DNA from: a virus
Taxonomy: Duplodnaviria; Caudoviricetes
IMG/VR virus record: IMGVR_UViG_3300031228_000019
Coordinates: 1 to 35,964 of that record
Strand: one strand, 5' to 3'
Length of the DNA: 35,964 bases
Shown: positions 7,716 to 35,460 of the stretch, piece after piece
Position numbering within the stretch: position 1 is the stretch's first letter
How the letters are laid out: each line of letters starts with the position of its first letter
Made by a program: the position numbers and the translations under genes
The notes under the pieces: generated by a model
The model's input: only the letters and a program-made list of their open reading frames with translations
Databases searched by the model: none
Told to the model about the DNA's origin: nothing

Positions 7716-8168
7716 GTGAAGACCTGCGAGGCGCCTGACTGTGACGTGGAGTTTGAGCCGGCCCGGTCGACGGCCCGGTTCCACACGGCGACCTGTCGGC
7801 AGCGCGCGGCTCGGGCCCGCAAGGCCGCGGACGCCCACGAGATCGACGAGGCGAAGACGGACACCCTGGCTGAGCACGGCCTGGTCAAGGCGGTCCGGAC
7901 CGAGCTCGAGCAGGCGAAGAAGGACCAGACGTTCAGCGGTCAGCTCGCTATCCAGCTGGCGCGCCGGCTGGCGAACCCGGAGGAGTCCGGCAGCACGGCG
8001 CTGTCGAAGGAGCTCCGCGCGGTGATGGCTGAGGCGTTGGTGTCCGTCGTCCCGCCGGCCGCTGGTGCCGGGTCTGAGCCGGCGCCGCCGGTCGAGGACG
8101 ACCAGGTCAGTCGAGCGAGGAGGGCCCGTGAAGACAAGGCCCGCGCGGCGGCAGCTGGTCGAGCCTGA
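7716..8168 (+). CDS. terS: Terminase small subunit
   Basis: RBS AAGGAG. N-terminal CEAPDC...FH...C Zn motif and helical LAIQLARRL...ALSKELRAVM segment. Located before terL. Confidence 0.7.
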   Translation: MKTCEAPDCDVEFEPARSTARFHTATCRQRAARARKAADAHEIDEAKTDTLAEHGLVKAVRTELEQAKKDQTFSGQLAIQLARRLANPEESGSTALSKELRAVMAEALVSVVPPAAGAGSEPAPPVEDDQVSRARRAREDKARAAAAGRA

Positions 8169-9696
8169 CTTCTGGACCTGCCCTCATGGCGTTCGTGTCC
8201 GGCCGGAGCCGTCGCTCACCTACGGTCCCGAGGTCGCGGACATCTGTGCGGGCGCCGGTTATGCGCCGGACCCTCAGCAGGAGCTCGGCCTCGACCACAT
8301 CTTCGCGATCGAACCGGACGGGTCGCCGTCGACGTTCGAGTTCTGCGTCATCTGCAGCCGCCAGAACCTGAAGACCGGGCTGTTCCTGCAGGCCGTCATC
8401 GGCTGGGTCTATGTGCTCGACGTTCCCGAGGTGGTCTGGTCGGCGCACGAGATGTCGACGACCCGGGCCGCCCAACGCGACCTGGCCAACATCCTCCGTT
8501 CCTCGCCGGCCCTGCGGAAGCGGATGCTGCCCCAGCGCAACGAGGGCATCTACGACGCCAACGGCGAGGAGCGCATCGAGCTCCTCGACCCGGAGACCGG
8601 GATGACCCAGGTCATCTGGTTCAAGGCCAGGACCCGCGACGGCGGCCGCGGCCTGGCGAAGCCGAAGCTGGTGCTCGACGAGGCGTTCGCGTTGAAGGCC
8701 GCGATGATGGGCGCGCTGATCCCGATCATGCTGGCCCAGCAGTGGCCGCAGGTTCTGCTCGGGTCCTCGCCGGGCAAGGCCGACAGCGAGGTCCTGTTCG
8801 ACATCCGCGACCGCGGTCGCAACCATCGGTCGCCGGCCATGACGTACCTCGAGTGGAGCAACGGCATCCGCCCTGACTGCGAGGACCCGGCCTGTCTCCA
8901 CCCGAAGTCGGGGTTCGAGGTCGGCGCCCCGTGTGTGGCGAACCGGATCGAGCTGATCGAGCATGCGAACCCGACACTGGTCAGCACTGACCGGATCACG
9001 CTCGGGACCCTGGCCAACGTCCGCCAGATCCTGACGGCGGCCGAGTGGTTCCGCGAGTGCGAGGGCTACTGGGAAGAGCCCGAGAAGGTCGAGACTGTTC
9101 CCCCGATCTTCGGCGAGGGCCGGTGGGAAGCGTGCGCCGGGCAGCCTGAGGAGTGGCCGGAGAAGCCTGCGGCGCTCGGTGTCGCGGTCTCGGTCGACCG
9201 CACCTGGGCGTCGATCGCCTCCGCGTCGGTGGTCGAGGTGCTCGAGGACCCGACTGACCCGGAGGCCGAGCCGGTTGACCGGATCTTCGTCGCGGCCACT
9301 GACCGACGTGAAGGCGTCGGGTGGCTGGTCGAGGAGCTGAAGCGGATCCAGGGTGCGACTGACTGCGTGATCGTGATCGACGAGAAGGGCCCGACCAAGG
9401 CCCTGCTCCAGGACCTCGAGGACGGCGACGTCGCCGTCGAAACGGTGAACCTCGAAGAGTACGCGGAGGCGTGCTCCCGGTTCCACGACAAGGTCCGCGC
9501 CGGCAACCTGCTGCACCCCGCCAGTGCGGGGCTCGAAGCCGACGAGGTCGACGAGCTCGACGAAGCCGTGAAGGGCGCCGTGTGGCGGACGGTCGGAGAC
9601 CGCAACGTCTACGGCCGGCGCAAGTCAGTGACCGACGTGTCCATGCTCGAAGCGGCGACCCTCGCCGCCCAAGGCGCCGAGAAGTTCGGATGGTGA
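8128..9696 (+). CDS. terL: Terminase large subunit
   Basis: DPQQ motif, Walker A-like SRQNLKTG, GRG, Walker B LVLDEA, GSS coupling motif, YLEWS, ANPTL, FRECEGYW. Confidence 0.92.
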   Translation: MKTRPARRQLVEPDFWTCPHGVRVRPEPSLTYGPEVADICAGAGYAPDPQQELGLDHIFAIEPDGSPSTFEFCVICSRQNLKTGLFLQAVIGWVYVLDVPEVVWSAHEMSTTRAAQRDLANILRSSPALRKRMLPQRNEGIYDANGEERIELLDPETGMTQVIWFKARTRDGGRGLAKPKLVLDEAFALKAAMMGALIPIMLAQQWPQVLLGSSPGKADSEVLFDIRDRGRNHRSPAMTYLEWSNGIRPDCEDPACLHPKSGFEVGAPCVANRIELIEHANPTLVSTDRITLGTLANVRQILTAAEWFRECEGYWEEPEKVETVPPIFGEGRWEACAGQPEEWPEKPAALGVAVSVDRTWASIASASVVEVLEDPTDPEAEPVDRIFVAATDRREGVGWLVEELKRIQGATDCVIVIDEKGPTKALLQDLEDGDVAVETVNLEEYAEACSRFHDKVRAGNLLHPASAGLEADEVDELDEAVKGAVWRTVGDRNVYGRRKSVTDVSMLEAATLAAQGAEKFGW

Positions 9697-9907: not shown

Positions 9908-11220
9908 CCCTGTTCGGCGCCGTGCGCCAGGCGCGCAACGCAGTCGACGCCGAGAACCCGCTGATCCCGTTGACCTCCGAGTCGCTGCTGCAGTACCTCG
10001 GCGTCGAGGAGACCTACACCGGGAAGAACGTCAGCGAGGTCACCGCGCTCGGCATGAGCGCCGTGTGGCGGGCGGTCCAGGTCTCGTGCAACGTGCCGGC
10101 GTCGCTGCCGATCCACGCCTACCGCGACGAGGACGATGCCCGTGTCGCGGCTACGGGGCAGGGCGCGATCCTGCTCGACGACCCGCACCCGGACATGACG
10201 CCGTTCGAGTTCTGGCAGACGGTCTTCATGCACCGCAAGCTGTGGGGCAACGCCTATGTGCGGAAGCTGCGCAACCGGCTCGGCCAGATCGAGGAGCTCT
10301 GGACGATCCACCCGGGTCGAGTGAAGGTGGGCCGCACGTCCGACGTCGGCGCGAAGGTCTACGCGATCGACGGCGGCAAGGAAGTCCTCTCCGACAACGA
10401 GATCCTGCACCTGCCTGGCCTCGGCTACGACGGCATCTGCGGCGTCTCCCCGATCCGCGCGGCCCGCCAGTCCATCGGTCTCGGCCTGGCCGCGGAGGAG
10501 TTCGGCGCGAAGCTGTTCGGCAACGGCTCACTGGCGACCGGCATCCTGCAGACCGAGCAGCGGCTGACCCAGACCCAGGCCGACAAGCTCGCCGAGCGGT
10601 GGAACAGCAAGCACTCGGGGCTGACGTCGGCGCACGGCACGATCGTGCTCGACAAGGGCGCGCAGTTCACGCAGCTGACCATCCCGCCGGCCGACGCCCA
10701 GTTCCTCGAGTCGCGTCGCTTCCAGATCGTCGAGGTCTGCCGCTGGTTCGGCATGCCGCCGTTCCTGATGTTCGAGACCGAGAAGTCGACCAGCTGGGGC
10801 ACGGGCCTGGAGCAGCAGGCGCTCGGCTGGGTGAAGTTCGACCTCGGCCCCGACCTGGTCGCCGTCGAGCAGCGCGTCACCAAGCACGTTCTCCGGCCGC
10901 CGTCGGCGATCCGCGGCCGCCCCACCGGGCCGGTCGACTACGCGAAGTTCGGGATCGAGGGTCTGCTGCGCGGCGACTCCGCCGCACGCTCGGCCTTCTA
11001 CACGTCCATGTGGAACCTCGGCGCGCTGTCGACCAACGAGATCCGCGCCTACGAGGAGAAGCCCCCGGTCGAGGGCGGCGACGTCCGCTACCGGCCGCTG
11101 AACATGGGCGAGCTCGGCACCACTGACACCGGTAGCACTCCCGGCCCGGGGCAGCCCGTCGACATCAACGGCCAGCTCGTGCTCGCCGGCATGCCCTCTT
11201 CACTGAAGGAGACACCCTGA
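9904..11220 (+). CDS. Portal protein, HK97 family
   Basis: SAVWRAV, LWGNAY, EILHL, GVSPIRAARQSIG, DAQFLESRRFQIVEVCRWFGMPP, LLRGD, NEIRAYE. Confidence 0.95.
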   Translation: MTLFGAVRQARNAVDAENPLIPLTSESLLQYLGVEETYTGKNVSEVTALGMSAVWRAVQVSCNVPASLPIHAYRDEDDARVAATGQGAILLDDPHPDMTPFEFWQTVFMHRKLWGNAYVRKLRNRLGQIEELWTIHPGRVKVGRTSDVGAKVYAIDGGKEVLSDNEILHLPGLGYDGICGVSPIRAARQSIGLGLAAEEFGAKLFGNGSLATGILQTEQRLTQTQADKLAERWNSKHSGLTSAHGTIVLDKGAQFTQLTIPPADAQFLESRRFQIVEVCRWFGMPPFLMFETEKSTSWGTGLEQQALGWVKFDLGPDLVAVEQRVTKHVLRPPSAIRGRPTGPVDYAKFGIEGLLRGDSAARSAFYTSMWNLGALSTNEIRAYEEKPPVEGGDVRYRPLNMGELGTTDTGSTPGPGQPVDINGQLVLAGMPSSLKETP

Positions 11221-12146
11221 TGAGCGACGCCCCGACTGGTCCGACCTACCGTTTCCACGGCCGCAACCGGCCGGAGGCCGGCAAGCGCACCGCGGTGCTC
11301 AACACCGCCGACGTGGTGGGCGTCGAGGACGGTGTCGCCACCCTCCGCATCTACGACCCGATCGACTCGTGGGGAGGCGAGTGGGGAGTCTCGGCGAAGG
11401 AGTTCGCTCGCGCGGTCGACTCTCTGCCGGACGACACGAACGAGATCCGGTTGCACATCAACTCCCCGGGCGGCGAGGTCTTCGAGGGTCTGGCGATCCT
11501 CAACCAGCTGCGCAACCACCCGGCGCGCGTCGTGGCCGTCATCGACGGACTCGCCGCTTCGGCTGCCTCGTTCATCGCTTCCGGCGCCGACGAGGTCGTC
11601 ATGGGCCGCAACACCCAGCTGATGATCCATGATGCATGGGGCCTGTGCGTCGGGCCCGCGGTCGACATGCGCGACACGGCCGACCGGCTCGACAAGATCA
11701 GCAACAACATCGCGAGCGTGTACGCCGAGAAGGCGGGCGGGTCGACCGACGACTGGCGCGCCCACATGCTGGCCGAGACCTGGTATGACGCTGACGAGGC
11801 TGTCGCCGCTGGGCTCGCGGACCGGGTCGAGGGTGAGGTCGACGCTGAGGCGGCGAACCGCTTCGACCTGTCGATCTTCGCCCACGCCGGCCGCGAGGAC
11901 GCTCCTGCTCCGCCGCTGCCGGCCGACGATAACGAGCCGACCGCGGTGAAGATCACCGTCGTCGCACCGGTCGCCTCGTCGAAGGCGGAGATCGGTGCCG
12001 AGGTGAAGTCCGCGCTGGATGCCTACTACCGCTCGGCCACCGCCGTTGCAGACGCGGCCACCCCTGCAGACGCCGCGGCCGTCGCTGCCGCGATGGACCG
12101 CCGGCACCGCCTCAACGCACGCCGGCTCCCCGTCGCGCAGCGCTGA
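11220..12146 (+). CDS. ClpP-like head maturation protease with C-terminal extension
   Basis: LHINSPGGEVFEG, IDGLAASAASFIA (catalytic Ser), LMIHDAW (His), ETWYDADEAVAAGLAD. Confidence 0.93.
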   Translation: MSDAPTGPTYRFHGRNRPEAGKRTAVLNTADVVGVEDGVATLRIYDPIDSWGGEWGVSAKEFARAVDSLPDDTNEIRLHINSPGGEVFEGLAILNQLRNHPARVVAVIDGLAASAASFIASGADEVVMGRNTQLMIHDAWGLCVGPAVDMRDTADRLDKISNNIASVYAEKAGGSTDDWRAHMLAETWYDADEAVAAGLADRVEGEVDAEAANRFDLSIFAHAGREDAPAPPLPADDNEPTAVKITVVAPVASSKAEIGAEVKSALDAYYRSATAVADAATPADAAAVAAAMDRRHRLNARRLPVAQR

Positions 12147-16118: not shown

Positions 16119-19100
16119 ATGGCTGGACCGATCCGCATCGCCGTCCTGGCGAACGCCTCCCAGGCCACCAAGGAGCTCCGCGGGGTCGCGGGCACAGCCG
16201 ACAGCATGGGCTCCAAGGTCGCGAGCGCCGCCAAGAAGGCGGCGCTCGGCCTTGCTGTTCTCGGGGCCGGCGCGGCGATCAAGTTCACCAAGGACGCCGC
16301 GGTCCTCGACACCAAGATGCGCGAGGTCGTCACCCTCTTCGGTGAGACCGGCAAGGCCGCCGAGCGGTCCCTGGGCGTCGTGCGCGGCCAGGTGCGGTCC
16401 CTGTCCGACGAGTTCGGGATCGCCCAGGAGACGCTGACTGGCGGCCTCTACCAGGCGATCTCGGCCGGGGTGCCGCGGGACAACGCGCTGGAGTTCATGC
16501 GGGTCGCCTCGAAGGCGGCCATCGGTGGTGTGACCGACGTCGAGACCGCGGTCGACGGGCTCTCCTCGACCATCAACGCCTACGGCCTCGACGCCAAGGA
16601 CGCGAGCAAGGTCGCGGACTCGATGTTCACCGCCGTCAAGGGCGGCAAGACCACGTTCGAGGAACTTTCGTCCAGCCTCTTCAACGTCGCCCCAGCCGCC
16701 GCGGCGTCCAAGGTGTCGTTCCAGGAAGTCAACGCGGCGATCGCGACCCTCACCGCCGGCGGCACCCCGACCGCTGTGGCCACCACCCAGATCCGGGCGG
16801 CCCTGACCGGGCTGCAGCGCCCGTCCGCGGACCTCACCAAGATCTTCCAGGCACTCGGCTACGAGAACGCTCAAGTGGCGATCGAGTCGAAGGGCCTCGG
16901 CTTCGCCCTCGACGCCGTCAAGGACGCCTCGAAGGGCAACAATGGCGAGCTGCAGAAGCTGCTCGGCAGCTCCGAGGCCGTGGCCGCCGCGAACGTTCTG
17001 GCCGGCGACGGCGCGAAGAAGTTCACGGCCGAGCTGAAGAACCAGAAGAAGGCGGCCGGGGCTGCCGCCGACGCCTTCGACACCGTCAACAAGGGCGCCG
17101 AGCGGCAGTTCGAGATTCTGAAGACCAACCTCCGCAACGTTGGGCTCAGCGTCGGCCAGGCACTTCTCCCGGCCCTGGCCAAGGTGTCGTCCTACCTGGC
17201 CAGCGAGGTCGGCCCGGCCGTGGACCGAGTCACCCAGTACCTGTCGGAGAACAAGGACGAGTTCCGCGCGACCGCCCAGACCGTGGCGGACACGGTCCTC
17301 CCGCCCCTGAAGACCCTCGGCGAGATTGTCGTCGGCGTCACTGGCTTCCTCGCCGAGCTGCCCGCCCCGGTCAAAGAGATCGGGATCCAGGCCGGCATCG
17401 CCGCCCTCATCCTGCCCCGGCTGACGGCGGGAGTCACCGGCGTCACCGCGTCAATGTCCTTGGGCATCGCTCGCGCCAGGCAGTACTCCGCCGAGATGAC
17501 CTACACGGCCACCCGGACTCAGGCTGCCACCGCCATGATGGGTCGGCTTTCTACGGCGGCACGAGGTGCCGCCGGTATCGGCGGCCTGCTCGCGCTCTCC
17601 GCGGGGGCCAGCACCGCCAACCAGTCTTTGAGCTTCCTGGCCAAGGCCGGTGGCGGCGCCATGTTGGGGTTCTCCCTCGGTGGTCCTGTCGGGGCAGCCA
17701 TCGGCGCCGGGGCGGGCGCGCTCTATGGTCTGGCGTCGGCGACCTCGACCAGCGCTGTCGAGATGGTGACCGCCAAGGACAACACCAAGGCGTATGCCGA
17801 CACCCTCGACCAGTTGACCGGCGCGATCACGGCAACGACTCGAGCGCGGGTGAAGGAGCGGCTGCTCGCCGACTCGGCGACAGCGGCCAACGCCCAGGAT
17901 GCCGTCAAGTACGGCGCGTCGATGCGAGACATCATCTCGGCGACGCTCGGACAGGAGGGCGCGCTGAGGCGGCTGCGCACCGCCCAGCGTGACGCGAACG
18001 AGGAATTCCGGCGGCTCCAGGACATACACGGATTCGGTTCCGAGGAAGCCGAGGGCGCACGCCAGCTGACCAGCGCCCTGCTGCTGCTCCTCCCGCAGCT
18101 CGGCGCGGAGCGGCGCATCCTGAAGGAGAACGCTGAGGCGGCCAGGCAGCACGCCCTCGACACCCAGAAGCTGTCGAAGGTGTACGCGGGCGTCCCGCCG
18201 CGGGTGATCACCAAGATCCGGGCGGAGGGCGGTGAGGTCTCGATCGGCCTGGCCAAGCGGCTGATCCGGCAGTTCCAGCTGACCCCCAAGCAGGTCCAGA
18301 CTATCTTCCGCGCGAACAACATCGAGAAGACCGACGCCCAGGTCCGGGGGCTGATCAAGCGCGTCCTCGAAACTGAGCCGGCGAGCAGGCGCGCGAACGC
18401 TGGACTCAGCAAGGTGGGCGACGCCAAGCCGTCGAACAAGTGGGTCCAGCTCTTCCAGCAGGACGCGAACCGTGGCGAGCGACAGTCCCGCGAGGCGTCG
18501 CAGGCCGTGCAGCGTTTCCTCAAGCAGGCCGGCGAGCAGAGGCCCAACATGCAGCCGTTCCTCGGTGGGCTGACCGCCGGGATCACGACCAGTAAGGCGC
18601 GTGCCGCAGCTGGCGGGCGTGAGATCGGCGGAGCACTGAAGTCCGGCCTCGAAGGCGGGTTCTCCGGCGCGATCTCCAGTCTCTCCACCATGGCCCGCAA
18701 CGCCGTGGCGGGGGCGATCGCGGCCGGCCGCCGCGCAGCGAAGGCGCAGTCCCCCTCGCGGGAGACGATGAAGCTAGGCAAGGACCTGGGCGACGGCCTG
18801 ACCATCGGGCTGGCCAGGACGCGCGCCCAGCAGAAGAAGGCCGGCCAGGATCTGGTGGCTGCACTGCTGTCCGGGGTCGGCGGGTCGGATCAGGTCGGCA
18901 AGGCCCTCGACAAGATCCGGTCGCTGGTCGAGAGGACTGTCAAGCACAAGAAGGACAAGGTCGAGTCGGCCCGCGAGCGCGAGATCCTGAAGCACCTGAA
19001 GGACCGGTTCGCTGAGCTGACCAAGATCGGCCGAGCCCAGGACAAGGCCAAGTCGGACCTGAGGGAACAGCGCGACCTCTACAGAGGCCTCGTCCAGGGG

Positions 19101-19892
19101 GCGAGGGAGTACGCGGCGGGGATCCGTGACGCGGTCGTCGAGTCCGGCAATCTCACGACCCTCGGCAAGGACGAAGAGGGCAACGTCTCGCTGGGCGGCA
19201 TTCTCTCGGACCTGAAGGACAAGGTCGCCCGGGCCGTGCGCTACTCCGGGGTGCTGAAGCAGCTCGCGGACGCGAAGCTCAGCGGGACCGCATTGCAGCA
19301 GCTGATCGACGCCGGCCCCGAGGGCGGGCTGGCCACGGCGGCGGCGATCGCGGCCGGCGGGAAGGCGGCGGTCGACGAGGTCAATACCCTCACCGGGCAG
19401 CTGGTCACCACCGGGCAGGGTCTCGGCACCGCCATGTCGGCTGAGTTCCACACGGCCGGGATCAATGCTGCGGCTGCCCTGGTGCGCGGGCTGGAGAAGG
19501 ACTCGGCCGCCCTGGACCGGGCCGCGAAGAGGCTGGCGAGGCGGCTCGCTGCGGCGGTGCGTAGCGAGCTCGGGATCAAGTCTCCGTCGCGGGTGTTCAT
19601 GAAGATCGGCGACGAGGTCATGAAGGGCCTGGAGATCGCCCTGGACGAGACGCGGGCGGCGAGCCTCGGCACCGGTACGGCGAAGTCGCTGGTGCAGGGC
19701 TTCGGAACTCCGTCGCTGGACTCGTTCAACGCGGTCGCCGGAGCAGCCAGCGCCAGCACGGGGTCGACGACGGTGAAGATCTACGTGACCGCCCCGGTGG
19801 GTTCGTCCAAGGCTGAGATCGGCGCTGAGGTGAAGTCCACTCTGGATGCCTACTACAACTCCGGCGGTCGAGACCTGGCGATCGGCGGATGA
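16119..19892 (+). CDS. Tape measure protein (TP901-family core)
   Basis: 1257 aa, Ala/Gly rich. GLYQAISAG, ADSMFTAVKGGKTTFEEL core; Gly-rich hydrophobic segments; AQSPSR and LGIKSPSRVF motifs. Confidence 0.95.
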   Translation: MAGPIRIAVLANASQATKELRGVAGTADSMGSKVASAAKKAALGLAVLGAGAAIKFTKDAAVLDTKMREVVTLFGETGKAAERSLGVVRGQVRSLSDEFGIAQETLTGGLYQAISAGVPRDNALEFMRVASKAAIGGVTDVETAVDGLSSTINAYGLDAKDASKVADSMFTAVKGGKTTFEELSSSLFNVAPAAAASKVSFQEVNAAIATLTAGGTPTAVATTQIRAALTGLQRPSADLTKIFQALGYENAQVAIESKGLGFALDAVKDASKGNNGELQKLLGSSEAVAAANVLAGDGAKKFTAELKNQKKAAGAAADAFDTVNKGAERQFEILKTNLRNVGLSVGQALLPALAKVSSYLASEVGPAVDRVTQYLSENKDEFRATAQTVADTVLPPLKTLGEIVVGVTGFLAELPAPVKEIGIQAGIAALILPRLTAGVTGVTASMSLGIARARQYSAEMTYTATRTQAATAMMGRLSTAARGAAGIGGLLALSAGASTANQSLSFLAKAGGGAMLGFSLGGPVGAAIGAGAGALYGLASATSTSAVEMVTAKDNTKAYADTLDQLTGAITATTRARVKERLLADSATAANAQDAVKYGASMRDIISATLGQEGALRRLRTAQRDANEEFRRLQDIHGFGSEEAEGARQLTSALLLLLPQLGAERRILKENAEAARQHALDTQKLSKVYAGVPPRVITKIRAEGGEVSIGLAKRLIRQFQLTPKQVQTIFRANNIEKTDAQVRGLIKRVLETEPASRRANAGLSKVGDAKPSNKWVQLFQQDANRGERQSREASQAVQRFLKQAGEQRPNMQPFLGGLTAGITTSKARAAAGGREIGGALKSGLEGGFSGAISSLSTMARNAVAGAIAAGRRAAKAQSPSRETMKLGKDLGDGLTIGLARTRAQQKKAGQDLVAALLSGVGGSDQVGKALDKIRSLVERTVKHKKDKVESAREREILKHLKDRFAELTKIGRAQDKAKSDLREQRDLYRGLVQGAREYAAGIRDAVVESGNLTTLGKDEEGNVSLGGILSDLKDKVARAVRYSGVLKQLADAKLSGTALQQLIDAGPEGGLATAAAIAAGGKAAVDEVNTLTGQLVTTGQGLGTAMSAEFHTAGINAAAALVRGLEKDSAALDRAAKRLARRLAAAVRSELGIKSPSRVFMKIGDEVMKGLEIALDETRAASLGTGTAKSLVQGFGTPSLDSFNAVAGAASASTGSTTVKIYVTAPVGSSKAEIGAEVKSTLDAYYNSGGRDLAIGG

Positions 19893-23816: not shown

Positions 23817-24178
23817 TGTCCACCGACTCCGCGATCCTGCTGATGCTCGCTGAGCAGCGACAGACCATCGCCGCCTTGCAGGACGAGGTCGCCGCGATTC
23901 GGCAACAGCCGCAGGAGTTCGAGCTCTCGTCCGAGGCGCAGGAGCCGGCGGTGATGCCCACCCCACACGACCCTGTCGCCGCTGGTGACTCCTCCTGCTC
24001 CAGGGTCGAATGCTGCGATGAGCTCGCCCTTCGCCGACAGATCGCTCAAGAGATGCTGGACGAGGCCGCCGCATACGAGCGGATGCCACACGGCGCTAAC
24101 GCGGCTGCCATCTTTGTAGAGGCTGCGCGACTGGTTGTCAGCTCTCTTCCAGATCCCGAGCGTCCCGCCACCTCGTGA
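23813..24178 (+). CDS. Hypothetical protein with N-terminal coiled coil
   Basis: ATGA overlap with the fibre stop. The 3' end overlaps the convergent HNH gene by ~40 nt. Confidence 0.55.
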   Translation: MMSTDSAILLMLAEQRQTIAALQDEVAAIRQQPQEFELSSEAQEPAVMPTPHDPVAAGDSSCSRVECCDELALRRQIAQEMLDEAAAYERMPHGANAAAIFVEAARLVVSSLPDPERPATS

Positions 24179-24689
24179 GGAACACCTCTCCCTTTTCCGT
24201 GAGCATGTACCCCTCACGCTGGTTCATCACGACGCCGGTGGGCCCCGACGTGACCATGGTGTTGTTGGGCGAAGCCACCTTCTTCATCAGGCCGTCTCTC
24301 AGCAGATACCACATCTGGATGTCGAGACCGCCGGGCAGATCGAGAATCTGACCGACCTTCATGTTGTTCAGAACGGCGAGTTCGAGGCATCGCCGCTCTA
24401 GGTCGCCGTAGCGGTTGGTTACCAGCGCGAGGTTGGCTTTGTACTGGAGCATCGCCAAGCGATCGATCTCTCCGATCGTGGCGCGGTGATGACACACGGC
24501 GCACAAGCAGATCAGGTTGTCGAAGTCGTGTCTCTTGACCTTCACCCAATCCACGATGTGGTGCACCTGGAGAGCAGCTGTTCCCCGACATGTGGGTATA
24601 GCGCAGCGATGCCCAGCCTCAATCATGACCTGCCGCCGTAGAGGGCGCGGAATGTCCCGACCAGCGTCCTTGGGGTCCGGATCTGCCAT
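24138..24689 (-). CDS. HNH endonuclease with C-terminal extension (moron)
   Basis: RDIPRPLRRQVMIEAGHRCAIPTC...VHHIVDW...HDFDNLICLCAVCH. Antisense to the late operon and visibly more AT-rich. Confidence 0.88.
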   Translation of the reverse strand: MADPDPKDAGRDIPRPLRRQVMIEAGHRCAIPTCRGTAALQVHHIVDWVKVKRHDFDNLICLCAVCHHRATIGEIDRLAMLQYKANLALVTNRYGDLERRCLELAVLNNMKVGQILDLPGGLDIQMWYLLRDGLMKKVASPNNTMVTSGPTGVVMNQREGYMLTEKGEVFLTRWRDARDLEES

Positions 24690-26048: not shown

Positions 26049-26363
26049 ATGCCCGAACACCTCACCCTCGCCGACCTCGGCATCGACGACGACCCCGGCA
26101 CCAGATGGCACCCTCACGCCGACAAGGCCGGCCTAGCAACCCGCCTGGACAACCTGGAAGCCCTGGTCGCGCAGATCGCCGACCAGCAACGCACCCTGGC
26201 TGCCCACGAGCACCGGATCACCGAGCTCGAGAACGCCCGCGTCGAACGGGTCGCGACCCAGCTGGAGTCCACCGCCATGTGGGAGGGCATCGGCCGTCTC
26301 CACGACCAGCCGTCCGGCACGCCCGAACAGATCGACCCACCACCAGCTGAGGAGACGCCATGA
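26049..26363 (+). CDS. Hypothetical coiled-coil protein
   Basis: RBS GGAGG; ATGA overlap with the endolysin. Confidence 0.7.
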   Translation: MPEHLTLADLGIDDDPGTRWHPHADKAGLATRLDNLEALVAQIADQQRTLAAHEHRITELENARVERVATQLESTAMWEGIGRLHDQPSGTPEQIDPPPAEETP

Positions 26364-27013
26364 TCGACCCCTACGCCCGGACCATCTTCCGCGACAAGGT
26401 CCTCGACAACGCCACCAAGTACGCGCTCCTCCAGGCGGAAGCCGAGCTCGGCTACCCGCTGACCATCATCCAAGGCGTCGGCGGAGCGGCGGCCAGCTCC
26501 GGCACCCACCTCGGCAAGAACGGCGAAGGCGGCCGCGCGGTCGACCTCACCGACAACGACGCCGCACGGAAGGTTCGGGTGCTCCGCGACCTCGGCTTCG
26601 CCGTCTGGCTGCGCCCCGAACGACCCGGCGTCTGGGGTCCCCACATCCACGGCGTGAACATCTTCGAGTCCCGCGCCAACCGGCGCGGGATCGCGGACCT
26701 GGCGTTCGACCAGATCCGCAAGTACGACGCCGGACAGGACGGCCTGTCCGGCTCCTCTCGGGACCCCAACCCCTACCGACCCAGCCCGCCGGCGGTCTAC
26801 ACGCTGGCCGAGTTCAGAGAGGACACGGTGCCACCCATGAACGACGTCGAGAAGGCCCGAGACAGCATCGTCCGCGCCCGTCACCACATCGGCAACGCGA
26901 TCGCCTACTGCAAGGACGCGGAGGGCCGCACCGTGGTCCAGAAGGCCATCCCCCAGCTCCGGGCCAAGCGCCGCGAGCTGCTGGCCCTCCTCGAGCACAT
27001 GCCGAAGAAGTGA
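26360..27013 (+). CDS. Endolysin, Zn peptidase (M15 / Hedgehog-DD-peptidase like)
   Basis: IIQG...ASSGTH...GRAVDL...LRDLGFAVWLR...WGPHIH (H...D...H zinc ligands), followed by a short helical C-terminal domain. Confidence 0.8.
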   Translation: MIDPYARTIFRDKVLDNATKYALLQAEAELGYPLTIIQGVGGAAASSGTHLGKNGEGGRAVDLTDNDAARKVRVLRDLGFAVWLRPERPGVWGPHIHGVNIFESRANRRGIADLAFDQIRKYDAGQDGLSGSSRDPNPYRPSPPAVYTLAEFREDTVPPMNDVEKARDSIVRARHHIGNAIAYCKDAEGRTVVQKAIPQLRAKRRELLALLEHMPKK

Positions 27014-27020
27014 CGAGGCG

Positions 27021-27860
27021 ATGATCCGCCTCCTGCTTCTTCTCTTGCCGATCCTCGCGGCGCTGGCCGACCGGCGCCCCTTCGCGAACGGTCACGACCC
27101 CGACCGGCCGTGGTGGACCGTGACCACCATCAACGCCCCGCAGGCCGTCAGGGGCACCAAGCGCCGGCTCCTGCGGTGGCCGGCCCGCGGCCGCCGGCTG
27201 CGCCAGCTGCTCCGAGACCACTGGGTCGTGCTGGCCGGTCTGCAGGAGGCTGGCCCGAAGACGCTGACCGGGTTCAAGAACGCCGCCCGCTGGGCTGTCC
27301 GGCTCGCCACCCCGAACGAGAAGCGCGGCAACTGGGAGGTCTGCAACGGCATCGTCACCTGGCTGGCGGTGATGCGCCGGCTCCACCGCCGTACCTTCCG
27401 GATCAGGCGGATCAACTTCCGCACCCCCCGGTGGCTGTTCATCCCCGTCCAGCTCTGCGCCGACACCGTCACCGGTGACCGGCTGATCTTCATCTCCGGG
27501 CACGCCGACCGCAAGAAGACCGCACCCGCCGCGAACCGGTACGTCCTCACCCAGATCGCCAAGCTCGGGAAGTGGCTGCACCAGGCCACCGGCTGCCCGG
27601 TGTCGGTCGTGATCGACGGCAACAACGACAAGGGCGCCGACGACATCTTCCACGCCCAGGGCGCCAGCCACCTGGCCGGCGACCACATCGACAAGGTCTA
27701 CGGCTGGGGCCTCGAAGGCCGCAACGCCCGGACCCTCACCGGGTTCACCCGCGTCGTCACCGACCACGGCAACCCGCCCGCCGTCGACGTCTCCCCGCTC
27801 CAGGACTGCCGCAACTTCGACCTCAACAAGATCCCCCGCCTCCCCAAGGAGCTCCGATGA
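27021..27860 (+). CDS. Endonuclease/exonuclease/phosphatase (EEP) fold protein with signal peptide
   Basis: Ordered EEP motifs TTIN, GLQE, ISGH, IDGN, IDKVY and TDH. N-terminus MIRLLLLLLPILAALA. Confidence 0.7.
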   Translation: MIRLLLLLLPILAALADRRPFANGHDPDRPWWTVTTINAPQAVRGTKRRLLRWPARGRRLRQLLRDHWVVLAGLQEAGPKTLTGFKNAARWAVRLATPNEKRGNWEVCNGIVTWLAVMRRLHRRTFRIRRINFRTPRWLFIPVQLCADTVTGDRLIFISGHADRKKTAPAANRYVLTQIAKLGKWLHQATGCPVSVVIDGNNDKGADDIFHAQGASHLAGDHIDKVYGWGLEGRNARTLTGFTRVVTDHGNPPAVDVSPLQDCRNFDLNKIPRLPKELR

Positions 27861-28592: not shown

Positions 28593-28957
28593 CGCCACTC
28601 CTCGCGCCATTCGTCGCTGTCGGACCAGATGGCGGCGAGGGCGCGGATTGTCGGGCAGGGCCACTCCACGCCGTCGTGCCTGTTGTAGTCGTGGCACGTC
28701 GTGCAGAACTGCTGCCCAGCCAGGTGCGGCGCGTCCTCGCGATGCAGCTCCACGATGGCCCGGAGTGCGGCGACGGTGCGGAGAACGTGGGCTGGGTGGT
28801 GGCGTGCGATGTGGGTCCGCGCCTCGAAGTTGATGCCATGGTCGGCCAGCCACTCCCATCCGCCGAAGCCGCGTTCGAGGGCCTGCTCCGCCGCCGCCTC
28901 GTCGGCATCCAGCCTGTCCGTGATGAACGACGTGATGGTGGCGGTGTCGGCGGTCAT
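28589..28957 (-). CDS. DUF6221-like actinophage protein
   Basis: FITDRLDADEAAA...HIARHHPAHVLR...RAIV...PCPTIRALAAIWSD...EEW signature. Confidence 0.75.
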   Translation of the reverse strand: MTADTATITSFITDRLDADEAAAEQALERGFGGWEWLADHGINFEARTHIARHHPAHVLRTVAALRAIVELHREDAPHLAGQQFCTTCHDYNRHDGVEWPCPTIRALAAIWSDSDEWREEWR

Positions 28958-29343
28958 CGAGTCGCCTCGTTCGCGAGCTGGGCCACGCGCTGATGAGAGA
29001 CCCCGAAGAGGGTGCCGATGTCACGCATCGGCACCTCGGCCTTCACGAGTGTTCGGATCGTCGTGCGGGTCATCGTGGCGGCGTGGGCTTCGAGGTCGGC
29101 GGCCTGCTGTCGCATTGCCTCGATCTCCTCGACGACGTCGCCGACGTGGCCGACTGCGTCGAGCACGATGTCGACGCGGCCGAGCTCGATACTCGATGGC
29201 GCTACGTCCTCTGTCACCGCGATGAGCGAGCGGGCCTGATCCTCTACCTCGGACACTCTGCGGGCCTGGGTGAGGCCGTCGATCGCGGGGACCTCGATCA
29301 TCCACCAGCGGCCATCGCGGGTCACGTTCACGTCGTACTTCAT
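28954..29343 (-). CDS. hicB: HicB-family antitoxin with C-terminal HTH
   Basis: YDVNVTRDGRWWMIEVPAIDGLTQARRVSEVEDQARSLIA and MRDIGTLFGVSHQRVAQL. Start reassigned to ATG 29343. Confidence 0.88.
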   Translation of the reverse strand: MKYDVNVTRDGRWWMIEVPAIDGLTQARRVSEVEDQARSLIAVTEDVAPSSIELGRVDIVLDAVGHVGDVVEEIEAMRQQAADLEAHAATMTRTTIRTLVKAEVPMRDIGTLFGVSHQRVAQLANEATR

Positions 29344-29345
29344 GA

Positions 29346-29540
29346 TCACCCTTCCTCGATCGCTTTGCGGCATTTCCGGACCACTCCGGCCGAGATGGTC
29401 TTGTGGCTCTGCGGCAGCGGGAAGGTGTGCTTCCCGCACGGGCAGCCGTACACGGTGTGACGGCCGTCGGACCGGATCACCGTCCAGCCAGCGTCCTTCA
29501 GTTCCTTGACCATCTTCCGGGTGGGCTGCTCGCTAACCAT
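29346..29540 (-). CDS. hicA: HicA-family mRNA interferase toxin
   Basis: 64-aa basic protein: MVKELKDAGW...GRH...LPQSHKTISAGVVRK, directly upstream of hicB. Confidence 0.9.
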   Translation of the reverse strand: MVSEQPTRKMVKELKDAGWTVIRSDGRHTVYGCPCGKHTFPLPQSHKTISAGVVRKCRKAIEEG

Positions 29541-32646: not shown

Positions 32647-32966
32647 CCCGCCACCGCCTGCGGGCCGATGCCGCCGCCACCGGCGAGCTGGCGGATCCGG
32701 TGCTCGACCCGCTCGGCGAAACGCTTCCGCGCCGCCTGCGGGGTCGTGCCCAGTCCGGAGGCGATGTAGGGCCACGACTGGCCGTTCGCGCGCATCCCGG
32801 CGACCGCGACGACGAGGGCCTCATCGACCAGTTCGACGAGGCCGGCGAGCTCGGCCAGGTCCGGTTCGTCGCCGTGCGCGACCCGGTGGCCGGCGGCCCG
32901 CACGATCCGCTTCACCATCGCGAGGTACTCGGTGGTCTCGACCGGCTCGCGGCGGCGGGCGCTCAT
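32643..32966 (-). CDS. HTH DNA-binding protein
   Basis: AVAGMRANGQSWPYIASGLGTTPQAARKRF; ATGA overlap with the repressor stop. Confidence 0.8.
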   Translation of the reverse strand: MSARRREPVETTEYLAMVKRIVRAAGHRVAHGDEPDLAELAGLVELVDEALVVAVAGMRANGQSWPYIASGLGTTPQAARKRFAERVEHRIRQLAGGGGIGPQAVAG

Positions 32967-33499
32967 GACGCACGCTCCGAGGTGACCAGGCGCAGCGGGA
33001 GGCCGAACCCTGTTATCGGAAGGTTCGGGGTTCGGGGCTCGGTGGTCACCGGGCCCGGGGTCGGGACGACGACGTCAGCGAGCTCGGCGCGGGCGGCGGG
33101 GACGAGCGTCAGCCAGCGCTCAGGCTTCAAACCAGCGGGTTCGGGGTTCGAGTCCCTGATGCCGTACCGAGATCCAAGCACGAAGGTGGAGCCCCCTCCC
33201 GGCGCAGTCCGGAGGGGGCTCTCTTCGTTTGCCCAGGCCTGTGGCACGTAATCCGAGCCGGGCATCAGCTCCTCGAGCGTGAGCCCGAAGAAACGCGACA
33301 CGACCAGGATCTCGTCGGCGCTCCAGCCTCGCTGACCGGCCAGCTTCTTGCTGAGGTTCGACTGGCTCATGCCAAGCATGGGCGCGGTTTCGAGTTGCGA
33401 CATCCGACGCCGCCGCATCTCTAGAGAGACGCGCTCACCGATGTAGTCGTCGGCTGACGCGTAGGGGACGGGCTCAGGCGCCCGGTGTGCTGTCGTCAT
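32963..33499 (-). CDS. Immunity repressor, XRE-family HTH, containing attP
   Basis: IGERVSLEMRRRRMSQLETAPMLGMSQSNLSKKLAGQRGWSADE. Start reassigned to leaderless ATG 33499 (TAGGAT 7 nt upstream). The internal GIRDSNPEPAG is an antisense tRNA T-arm. Confidence 0.88.
   Translation of the reverse strand: MTTAHRAPEPVPYASADDYIGERVSLEMRRRRMSQLETAPMLGMSQSNLSKKLAGQRGWSADEILVVSRFFGLTLEELMPGSDYVPQAWANEESPLRTAPGGGSTFVLGSRYGIRDSNPEPAGLKPERWLTLVPAARAELADVVVPTPGPVTTEPRTPNLPITGFGLPLRLVTSERAS
33133..33168 (+). other. attP core: 3' half of a host tRNA (resembles actinobacterial tRNA-Lys CTT)
   Basis: CAGCGGGTT-CGGGG-TTCGAGT-CCCTG-ATGCCGT-ACC has a T-arm and 3' acceptor strand but no D-arm or 5' half. Confidence 0.85.
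33189..33230 (+). terminator. Phage-supplied terminator for the reconstituted tRNA
   Basis: 11-bp stem GAGCCCCCTCC / GGAGGGGGCTC followed by TCTTCGTTT, ~20 nt downstream of the att core. Confidence 0.8.
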
Positions 33500-33635
33500 G
33501 CGGAGCATCCTAGCGCGTTCTGGACGAATTGGACTAGAGGCGACACGCCCAATTAGAACCACATGCTTGTAATTCGTCCATCCGGTGCCTTATGGTCCGC
33601 TACATGCCATCAGATCGGAATACACCGGACGAAGT
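33500..33635. promoter_or_regulatory. Divergent lysis/lysogeny promoters and operators
   Basis: Leftward -10 TAGGAT (33507-33512). Rightward TTGTAA-N18-TATGGT-N7-ATG. Inverted 10-mers TGGACGAATT (33521-33530) and AATTCGTCCA (33571-33580); third partial copy GGACGAAGT (33627-33635). Confidence 0.7.
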
Positions 33636-33810
33636 GGCCGGATCGGCGCTCCTCATGCCTCGCGAGGTCATGAAGCGGCTCCGGGTCTCACGTCAGACGC
33701 TCGCGCGGTACGTCGCCGGCGGGCACCTGGCCGCAGTCGTCCTTCCCTCCGGTCACCGCCGATATCGCGAGGCCGACGTCTGCGCGATGGAACGGACGGT
33801 GACGGCATGA
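33604..33810 (+). CDS. Cro/excisionase-like MerR-type HTH protein
   Basis: LLMPREVMKRLRVSRQTLARYVAGGHLAAVVLPSGHRRYREADV; divergent from the repressor. Start 33604 (leaderless) or 33592. Confidence 0.88.
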   Translation: MPSDRNTPDEVAGSALLMPREVMKRLRVSRQTLARYVAGGHLAAVVLPSGHRRYREADVCAMERTVTA

Positions 33811-34250
33811 GCGACCAGACCGCCCGCATCGCGGATGCCCGGCTCTCGGGCTTAGAGGCCCGCTGCTGCAACCTTCGCTCGCAGCTGGTGGACCTCGAGG
33901 CTCAGGCGACCGACCAGCGTGAGGATCTCCGCGCCGGTGGTCAGCGCCAACTCGGTCAGGTCCCGGGGTCCGCCCGAGACGCCGATCGGGTCGTCGCTGT
34001 AATCCCGCTGGCCGATCTCCTGCATGGCGGCGATGAGCTTGTCCTGCGCCTTCGACACGTCGTCGGCGATCTCTTTCGTCATGGTGACTCCAATTCTTCG
34101 GTTGCTGGTCCTTCCGAAGGTAGGCGCGGCGGCGGAGATGAGCCCGCCGCCGCGCCGTCACCGACGTCCGACCCGGCAGCGCTCGGTCGTGAGGTCAAGC
34201 GAGTCCTAGACGCCTACTACCGGGCCGGTGGCCGGCAGCGCGCCCCCTAA
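33807..34250 (+). CDS. Early ORF (147 aa) ending in a tape-measure C-terminus-like motif
   Basis: ATGA-coupled to cro/xis. Ends DPAALGREVKRVLDAYYRAGGRQRAP*. The middle section is the antisense of 33852-34082. Confidence 0.55.
   Translation: MSDQTARIADARLSGLEARCCNLRSQLVDLEAQATDQREDLRAGGQRQLGQVPGSARDADRVVAVIPLADLLHGGDELVLRLRHVVGDLFRHGDSNSSVAGPSEGRRGGGDEPAAAPSPTSDPAALGREVKRVLDAYYRAGGRQRAP
33852..34082 (-). CDS. Small helical protein nested antisense in the early operon
   Basis: RBS GGAG 5 nt before the ATG, -10-like TACCTT upstream, good codon usage, amphipathic sequence MTKEIADDVSKAQDKLIAAMQE... Confidence 0.7.
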   Translation of the reverse strand: MTKEIADDVSKAQDKLIAAMQEIGQRDYSDDPIGVSGGPRDLTELALTTGAEILTLVGRLSLEVHQLRAKVAAAGL

Positions 34251-34410
34251 GCCCACGAGCTCCGGCCCGGAGCGGGGGCTGTCCACTCCTTCCCTCGCAC
34301 TGGTCCGGCGGGCCGGGACCACCGCAGGGGTCCCGGCCCAACCACTCCCTACCGCCCTGGCTCACGTCGAGACGACGTCGGCCTTCCTCGTCACGCCTGG
34401 AGGCTGACCG

Positions 34411-34572
34411 ATGGACCACGACATCTACATCGGCAAGACCGAAGACGGCCTGAACGTGCTGGTCACGGTGTACACCGACGGCTTCGCCACGATCGCGACC
34501 CGAGCCGACGCATCGGTCAGCTGGTCCGCCGCCGTCGAGCTGGAGCGCAGCCCGATCGAGGTCCCGTGCTGA
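34411..34572 (+). CDS. Small hypothetical protein (53 aa, MDHDIYIGKTEDG...)
   Basis: Not in the ORF track. RBS GGAGG, high GC3, overlaps the next start. Confidence 0.7.
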   Translation: MDHDIYIGKTEDGLNVLVTVYTDGFATIATRADASVSWSAAVELERSPIEVPC

Positions 34573-34796
34573 CCGGGCTGGCGATCCCGGGCCCAGCTGA
34601 CGCCGGGTCGCTGCTCGCGGCTGCACCGCTTCTCCTCGCGGCAGTGGTGCTGATGCTCCCGATGGCGGCTGTCCGCGTCCTGGTCTGGATCGACGAGGGG
34701 ACGCCGGGCATCGCCGGGCGACTCTCTGCCGACCGCCGTCGACCCTCGACGGCCTGCCCAACCTCGCCGGACTCCACGCATGGAGTCGCTCGATGA
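34566..34796 (+). CDS. Small membrane protein
   Basis: Hydrophobic LLAAAPLLLAAVVLMLPMAAVRVLVWI; ATGA coupling to the next gene. Confidence 0.5.
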   Translation: MLTGLAIPGPADAGSLLAAAPLLLAAVVLMLPMAAVRVLVWIDEGTPGIAGRLSADRRRPSTACPTSPDSTHGVAR

Positions 34797-35089
34797 GCGG
34801 CGACCTGGGCGACAGCCTCGACTTGCCGTTCGAGGTGGGTCCGCCGGGCGAGCTGCTCGACGACAACGTGCACTACTCCGGCGGCGTCGTGGTGATGGCC
34901 TCCACCGTCGATGTGCCCGACGTCGGCGTCATGCCGGCGCTGGTCTTCCGGTTCGCCAATCCGCTCGGCGGGTTCTACCCGGCGATCGTGCTCGTCACTG
35001 ACGACGACCAGATGGCCAAGCTCCGACCTCTGCTCATGGAGGCGATCGCGGCGGCCCGCCGCGGCGCGAAGACCGGCGGCACGAAGTGA
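34793..35089 (+). CDS. Hypothetical protein
   Basis: RBS GGAG; overlaps with both neighbours. Confidence 0.7.
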   Translation: MSGDLGDSLDLPFEVGPPGELLDDNVHYSGGVVVMASTVDVPDVGVMPALVFRFANPLGGFYPAIVLVTDDDQMAKLRPLLMEAIAAARRGAKTGGTK

Positions 35090-35460
35090 CCGGCGTGAGC
35101 CTCGGCGCCCGGCCGGCCGACAACCCCGACGAGCTCGCGCTCTTCGCCGACGGCTGGACCGTGCTGAACAAGCCGGTCGCTGACCGGTTCCGCGAGGCCT
35201 GCCGCGCCGACGCCGACGCGCACGACGGCTGGGTCAACCCGAACCGGGTGCGGGAGCACTTCCTAGTCGACGGCGAGCTGGCGGTCGACCCCCGGCAGTA
35301 CTCCGCTCTCTGGTCGAAGGCCTGCGCCCGCGACGGCTACCTGGTCGTCACCGACGTCAAGGTCCCGATCAAGGGCCCGGGCAGCAAGGGCAACGGCAAC
35401 AAGGACATCCGGCTGCGTCGCTTCGCCGACGACCCCGAGCCCGTCGAGGAGACGCCGTGA
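35086..35460 (+). CDS. Hypothetical protein
   Basis: GTGA coupling; globular-looking sequence with high GC3. Confidence 0.7.
   Translation: MTGVSLGARPADNPDELALFADGWTVLNKPVADRFREACRADADAHDGWVNPNRVREHFLVDGELAVDPRQYSALWSKACARDGYLVVTDVKVPIKGPGSKGNGNKDIRLRRFADDPEPVEETP

Follow-up and report, generated by a model that had tools for sequence, protein, structure and literature searches.

A tape measure protein C-terminal module repeated on unrelated proteins of a temperate phage genome, with a parallel in Gordonia phages and a putative decoy function

The analyzed window is a whole virus record of 35,964 bases (estimated completeness 53%; 68.7% G+C). Its gene layout is that of a temperate siphophage, with genes for a portal protein, a ClpP-like head protease, a capsid protein, a tape measure protein (TMP), an integrase, a repressor and an xis/cro-like protein (Table 1). 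Since the closest cultured matches by protein are actinophages, the host is probably an actinobacterium. One short motif was distinguished at three positions, with its LDAYY residues encoded at 12015 (protease), 19842 (TMP end) and 34206, all on the same strand; the three occurrences are referred to as copies 1, 2 and 3, respectively. The region of copy 3 is represented in public sequencing runs: contigs of runs X1 and X2 (one sample, possibly the source of the record) are identical to the window over 33790-34330, and a contig of run X3 matches it over 33914-34190. These matching contigs rule out an assembly error as the cause of copy 3.

Table 1. Coordinates of the genes, motif copies and sequence elements considered in this study.
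Feature	Position	Strand
Terminase genes	7716-9696	
ClpP-like head maturation protease (PF00574, phrog_2976), carries copy 1	11220..12146	+
Copy 1: TMP end grafted in frame (30 codons) into the head protease linker	11946..12035	+
Tape measure protein (TMP), 1257 aa (PF10145)	16119..19892	+
Copy 2: native TMP C-terminal module (extended segment, helix, GGR)	19773..19892	+
xis/cro-like HTH gene (HTH_17); stop overlaps start of the 147-codon frame	33592..33810	+
147-codon frame, ATGA-coupled to xis/cro, carries copy 3; translation putative	33807..34250	+
Gene encoding 76 aa, preceded by a GGAG ribosome site; codon use resembles that of genes; neither family nor relatives found	33852..34082	-
Segment upstream of the module, common to copy 3 and P0049	34111..34154	+
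Perfect 13-bp hairpin, encoding the RRGGGDEPAAA stretch of the + frame; likely leader or terminator	34123..34156	
Copy 3: helix-GGR part of the TMP module, with stop where TMPs end	34161..34250	+
Small minus-strand genes before the TMP gene (Gordonia phages)	L229:9218-9538; L227:9226-9561; L231:5634-6161, 4297-4644	-

A profile of the copies was searched against 1.84 billion representative proteins (50% clusters), a search that is blind to grafts hidden behind a cluster representative, and gave 49 matches, five of which were dropped as repeats. Once the phage's own TMP had also been removed, 43 matches were left: 34 were tape measures according to PHROGs and 9 had no family. Since 34 of the 43 matches are tape measures and the motif is C-terminal in all 43 proteins scanned, it is, as judged by sequence, the terminal module of an actinophage TMP family. 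The module consists of an extended segment, followed by a helix and a GGR sequence; the helix is predicted at residues 12-28 of a 38-residue model (pLDDT 81). No solved structure in the PDB matches the TMP-end family by sequence, and neither Pfam nor PHROGs holds a model of the module itself. Two more short proteins of atypical context (P0051 and P0052, on contigs of about 1 kb) also end in the module, and may be TMP fragments or stand-alone mimics.

The initial annotation had placed the motif in an early frame, a head protein and the TMP. An HMM based solely on the ends of 41 TMPs and TMP fragments agrees, finding exactly three copies in the window, with 52.0 bits (iE about 1e-13) for copy 1 and 48.5 bits (iE about 1e-12) for copy 3, which covers model positions 14-41 and whose match ends one residue before the stop. 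The carriers of these two copies are not tape measures: one is the ClpP-like protease, the other a 147-codon frame without a family, and neither has a TMP body in the tail operon. The complete module (extended segment, helix, GGR and stop) is present in neither of them, as copy 1 lacks the GGR and stop, and copy 3 the extended segment.

The identity of 14 of 25 residues between copy 3 and the TMP end, noted in the initial annotation, was reproduced (15 of 26 in a self-comparison of the window). Chance, named there as the explanation that would undo the match, is contradicted by a BLOSUM62 score of 74, reached by 0 of 300 shuffled queries compared with all six frames of the window (maximum 54; Gumbel P about 5e-6). 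The protease copy scores 112. In a six-frame self-comparison, the two best internal duplications of the genome both correspond to the TMP-end segment (49.3 and 30.4 bits), while the next, unrelated one (28.1 bits) lies in Arg-rich frames. At the protein level, no self-duplication other than that of the TMP end thus rises above background in this genome, and that one is found twice. A template repeat of a diversity-generating retroelement was considered and rejected (46 of 81 bases identical, with mostly synonymous change); no reverse transcriptase was found among the 42 ORFs scanned of this incomplete record.

Copy 1 is a 30-codon in-frame insertion that follows the ClpP domain of the protease and precedes its conserved C-terminal tail. 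It is absent from all 80 related protease loci, including relatives at 73-88% identity, and is, by this comparison, a lineage-specific in-frame graft. Searches for relatives of the grafted protease found none, the protein searches with the graft region returning only the protein itself or nothing, as did those aimed at short proteins. Copy 1 shares 25 of 30 residues with the phage's own TMP; 17 codons are identical, 8 differ synonymously and 5 are changed (dN 0.13, dS 0.62). Since the residues changed in copy 1 also occur in sibling TMPs, part of this low dN/dS may predate the graft. As part of the reading frame of a head-assembly gene, copy 1 is almost certainly translated.

Copy 3 is a true homologue of the TMP end, and its carrier is uncertain. 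Its 23-residue core scores 60.7, compared with a leave-one-out median of 58.0 for the 41 TMP family members, and all 10 columns conserved at ≥80% are intact except for one Ile-to-Leu change. The module's N-terminal extended segment (7 residues) is missing. Copy 3 resembles other family members (17 of 23 residues identical with P0013) more than it does the phage's own TMP. As had been annotated initially, the + frame is open, is coupled to the stop of the upstream gene by an ATGA overlap and ends in the motif. The further proposal that this is an early ORF which makes the motif before any TMP was not borne out: 77 of its 147 codons are the in-register antisense of the 76-codon minus-strand ORF, and such open shadows are normal in the window (2464 of 3275 77-codon windows, i.e., 75%). 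The codon-use score is 0.47 for the minus ORF vs. -0.18 for the + frame, and public gene callers chose the former. The 29 codons that follow the shadow pass through the perfect 13-bp hairpin and also score as non-coding, so that the + frame is non-coding-like over 106 of its 147 codons (0% of gene windows score as low). It also contains a weak terminator-like site at 34052. No independent start codon is present between 34083 and copy 3, and no sigma-70 promoter match was found; the position of the + ORF as second in an early transcript is suggested by the layout. That the frame runs unbroken from the coupled ATG into copy 3 would be expected by chance with a probability of roughly 4% (0.75 x 0.56 x 0.85 times two frame choices of 1/3, where the frame odds are our assumption), which counts in favor of a decoy role. 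On balance we lean somewhat against translation of the 147-codon frame, and the early ORF is the weakest of the copies.

No relatives of the + ORF were found in viral contigs, cultured phages or the protein collection, nor any match in Pfam, PHROGs or PADLOC 2023. When viral, metagenome and genome collections were scanned for the pattern, only the window itself, unrelated proteins and one further record (L081, identical to L133) came up; in this record the match is a TMP end, and the record stops before the early region. A 60-aa protein, P0049, the nearest relative of copy 3, has both the module and a stretch upstream of it in common with copy 3, and 0 of 20,000 shuffles reach this match. In the upstream part, four residues match in the +1 frame, followed by eleven in the frame of the motif. 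Since the upstream stretch is common and these four residues lie in the +1 frame, copy 3 appears to descend from a P0049-like sequence by a one-base frame change and a short deletion. This frame change, together with the loss of the N-terminal strand, is a second point against the + ORF as an early source of the motif. A programmed frameshift at 34121 was considered, and no slippery heptamer was seen there by eye. P0049, which like P0051 and P0052 comes from a short contig (1.0-1.8 kb for the three), is perhaps encoded by a mini-gene of its own, or else is the end of a TMP whose start was wrongly assigned; viral contigs, cultured phages and the protein collection hold no relative of it, and the ESM Atlas gave small clusters at 0.93, which serve as leads only.

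The minus-strand gene within the + frame is a candidate for expression in the lysogen. Its 76-aa product has no match in Pfam, PHROGs or PADLOC 2023 and no homologue in viral contigs, cultured phages or the protein collection; unnamed ESM Atlas clusters (under 0.9) are again leads only. The gene borders a structured region (34083-34415; z -3.1 on the + strand and -3.8 on the - strand) with two perfect hairpins, the one of 13 bp at 34123-34156 and another of 11 bp at 34310-34339. On the minus strand, the bases adjoining the start of the 76-aa gene are paired in a helix, and the region is possibly a translational control leader. No Rfam match at gathering score and no whole tRNA were detected in the window. 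In run X4, one contig (depth 2.4) shares 34094-34211 and not the DNA to the left, and this single low-depth contig gives a weak hint that the minus gene is exchangeable.

Several further features were observed in the surrounding immunity region. A perfect 10-bp inverted repeat (33521-33530 / 33571-33580), with a near copy at 33627-33637, lies between the repressor and xis/cro genes; these repeats are likely operators. The 3' part of the repressor frame (32963-33499, minus strand) includes a stretch resembling the 3' half of a tRNA (33120-33207), to which a great many contigs align, and the last part of the integrase is rich in Ala. Actinophages are known for integration-dependent immunity, which the tRNA-like stretch of the repressor and the integrase tail resemble; in the window, several genes separate the repressor and the integrase. 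Run X1 also contains a second version of 34386-35200 (85-90% identical, with two replaced segments), which represents a co-occurring mosaic relative.

The initial annotation had proposed a search for TMP C-terminal motifs in non-tail genes, and the same phenomenon was indeed encountered in holin-like proteins of Gordonia phages. The TMP end of Gordonia phage Powerball was found at 166 places in 125 records (GenBank and RefSeq duplicates included), i.e., at 41 extra places. In all three whole or near-whole genomes examined (DobbysSock, Twinkle and Ebert), the extra copy sits in the tail of a holin-like protein encoded after the endolysin, with scores of 73, 74 and 79, respectively, compared with shuffle maxima of 46-50. 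The tail that carries the graft looks cytoplasmic. The same holin-tail graft was found in the lysis regions of three further phages (Dorito, RavenCo17 and Vasanti), and the lysis cassette of Suerte carries a graft of the DobbysSock type; Powerball itself has no holin graft. Queries with the two holin tails matched 156 places (124 records) and 152 places (126 records), and among the 60 matches listed for each, at least 16 and at least 13, respectively, fall on holin-like genes. Between the two holin types, the membrane parts show no relationship (their score was reached in 193 of 1000 shuffles). The tail is missing from sister holins that are as much as 98% identical over residues 1-121, with coverage below 80% in 27 of 55 records. 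Within holin types, dN is below dS in five of six pairs (0.15/0.71, 0.08/0.44, 0.06/0.16, 0.27/0.71 and 0.36/0.64), giving dN/dS of about 0.2-0.4 in most of them, while the tails of DobbysSock and Twinkle differ by 4 non-synonymous and 0 synonymous codons; all of these values rest on 27-30 codons. The DobbysSock tail scores 83 on the TMP end of Ebert and 73 on its own.

The Gordonia holin cases are independent repeats of the pattern seen in the window. Since the Gordonia TMP end is unrelated to the motif of the window (scores 16-19), at least three or four independent graft events are implied. The pattern is not found in every TMP family. Among 27 other records with an identifiable TMP, many of them fragments, none has a second copy of its own TMP end at this level: the best scores were 29-44, including a borderline 44 for L184 (shuffle maximum 43), and G031, with 59 in an Arg-rich frame (shuffle maximum 60), is also borderline. 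The TMP families of Techage and phiC31 gave one place per record (83 of 83 and 19 of 19, respectively), and the search with the window's own motif gave exactly one match in 15 of 31 records. Grafting of TMP ends is a real and partly general pattern, with a likely function and a putative mechanism. As a separate observation, Gordonia phages with the Powerball-type TMP have small minus-strand genes just before the TMP gene (Table 1); these are candidate lysogen-expressed genes and, speculatively, candidate TMP-end binders.

In solved siphophage tails, the TMP C-terminus anchors, as a trimeric helix, in the baseplate core where tail assembly starts (PMC11445458), and the TMP is a low-copy target, with three to six copies per virion (PMC10884400). 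The protein Tab blocks tail assembly with an effect that maps to the TMP's C-terminal region, and phages encoding it need an antidote in lytic growth (PMC10884400). In Pseudomonas phage JBD26, tab is a minus-strand gene with its own promoter, located beside a plus-strand antidote gene coupled to the gene upstream (PMC10884400), and this layout is echoed by 33852-34082 together with 33807-34250, with the difference that in the window the plus frame encloses the minus gene. By this analogy of layout, the 76-aa gene is a candidate blocker. The resemblance has limits: the tab pair lies between the two terminase genes (small and large), whereas the locus in the window adjoins the immunity region, and the available text on anti-Tab does not describe it as a TMP mimic, whereas the mimic in the window is a short graft on unrelated proteins (PMC10884400). 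As in the anchors of siphophage TMPs (JBD30 gp46, T5 pb2 and 80alpha), the copied segment is the extreme TMP C-terminus and is predicted to be helical; the known anchors, however, occur only on the TMP, as far as the available text goes (PMC11445458).

Other systems make the TMP or tail assembly a recurrent target of defence, a pressure which a decoy would answer: Avs18 senses a central TMP segment (PMC13581612), Rta maps to TMP residues 314-387 (PMC12987554), NBJ gp45 to residues 144-345 (10.64898/2025.12.12.693979), and Tai belongs to the same group (PMC11364771). In the available parts of these reports, unlike in the present case, the proteins act on internal TMP regions or on other tail parts, and the escapes reported are TMP substitutions or a replacement TMP, not decoys. 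A survey of the holin-like proteins found in Gordonia CZ phages includes Suerte's lysis cassette and describes long C-terminal regions, but its available text does not link them to the TMP (PMC9671378). TMP-end grafts are also not mentioned in the portions available of a study of fragment shuffling (PMC10684548), and those of two further papers (PMC12184496 and PMC13728456) add nothing on them. The literature searched, comprising few subscription papers and no supplements, gave no description of TMP ends grafted on other proteins; grafts on holins and other carriers are so far undescribed in it.

The explanation that we prefer, at a little under an even chance, is that the TMP-end copies are self-mimicking decoys against Tab-like blockers of tail assembly. 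An inhibitor that binds the TMP end would block tail initiation, and C-terminal TMP modules on unrelated proteins would soak up such a stoichiometric inhibitor and relieve the block. The carriers would be made in lytic growth in more copies than the TMP, and, by presenting the graft in the cytoplasm, would titrate the binder. Since the carriers are unrelated while the cargo is shared, it would be the cargo that matters and not the carrier. Translation of the 147-codon frame would make copy 3 an additional, early dose of decoy; without translation, copy 3 would be a decayed decoy or a relic. The TMP-end homology of all copies, the in-frame grafts in protease and holins, their absence in sister loci and the excess of synonymous change in most graft comparisons are in favor of decoys, while the non-coding character of the + frame, the terminator-like site, the strong hairpin and the partial, frame-changed, relic-like state of copy 3 speak against them. 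The failure to find relatives of the + ORF, the minus gene or the grafted protease, the single TMP end in the 27 other records and in the Techage and phiC31 families, the DobbysSock-Twinkle pair and the action of Avs18, Rta and NBJ gp45 on other parts of the TMP also count against decoys. A sensor that triggers cell death fits more poorly as the decoy target than a stoichiometric blocker, because decoys might themselves trigger it and because Avs18 reads the central TMP segment. The TMP self-mimicry proposed in the initial annotation is thus partly supported: the module is genuine and is the only self-duplication above background, and the protease graft and the Gordonia parallel stand beside it.

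A somewhat unlikely alternative is that the copies are neutral debris, i.e., 3' ends of sibling TMP genes pasted by illegitimate recombination into tolerant places with little harm, with copy 3 as untranslated DNA that is now part of the structured leader of the minus gene. The grafts are indeed optional and patchy, copy 3 carries two indels in a folded region in a frame that is a shadow, the low-depth contig of run X4 shares 34094-34211 and not the left-hand DNA, and phages are described as shuffling protein fragments (PMC10684548). Against such debris, one genome, with no other self-duplication above background, has captured the same short gene end two times, at least two further captures occurred in Gordonia holins, the conserved columns are intact, and synonymous change exceeds non-synonymous change in five of the six within-type holin pairs. 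It is unlikely that the graft is a docking tag, which would bind whatever the TMP end normally binds (the baseplate hub or other TMP ends) and thereby couple its carrier to the assembly of tails, for example by holding the holin until tails are built or by bringing the protease to the TMP. The trimeric coiled coil that TMP ends form in the baseplate core (PMC11445458), the fact that both Gordonia grafts sit on lysis-timing candidates and the closeness of copy 1 to its own TMP fit docking, but the carriers are functionally unrelated, close sister phages lack the graft, and the holin tails do not always score best on their own TMP, as the DobbysSock tail demonstrates.

Quite improbable, finally, is a dominant-negative weapon, in which the free helix would jam the baseplate of competitors with the same TMP family and sequence divergence would provide self-immunity. 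The greater similarity of copy 3 to other family members than to its own TMP would suit a weapon, and interference with tail assembly is a known prophage strategy (PMC11364771). All carriers, however, lie in lytic transcripts by layout, copy 3 has no start codon of its own downstream of 34083, and copy 1 and the holin tails are similar to the TMP of the phage that carries them.

Returning to the decoy explanation and its docking counterpart, we propose, tentatively and with some doubt, that temperate actinophages repeatedly graft the docking end of the TMP onto lytic proteins, either as decoys or as a tag that links lysis or head maturation to the tail, and that the 76-aa gene and its antisense ORF are a blocker and an antidote encoded on opposite strands of the same DNA. 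If so, TMP-end grafting onto holins, a head protease and an overprinted early ORF would be a general and so far undescribed strategy. Tail assembly has only recently been recognized as a target of defence; the escapes described in papers are TMP mutation, TMP replacement and a dedicated antidote, and a phage with grafted copies of the target would have a further route. The exact surface bound by an inhibitor or partner would be marked by each graft, which would provide bait for it. The Gordonia cases are cultured phages that grow on a standard laboratory host and offer natural pairs with and without a graft, such as the holins of Ebert and Eyre, 98% identical over the membrane part. If the docking alternative is true, the timing of lysis would be linked to tail completion.

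Three other regions of the window contain genes of minor interest for the present analysis: (i) two ORFs (217 and 279 aa) in the lysis position (26360-27860), without Pfam or PHROG family, which are candidate parts of an unusual endolysin; (ii) a HicA-like gene (PF07927) with a downstream HicB-like HTH ORF (28954-29540, minus strand), located between the lysis genes and the integrase gene; and (iii) a gene encoding an HNH protein with a weak winged-helix C-terminus (24138-24689, minus strand), inverted in the late region and with weak PADLOC hits, which is possibly a lysogen-expressed defence gene.
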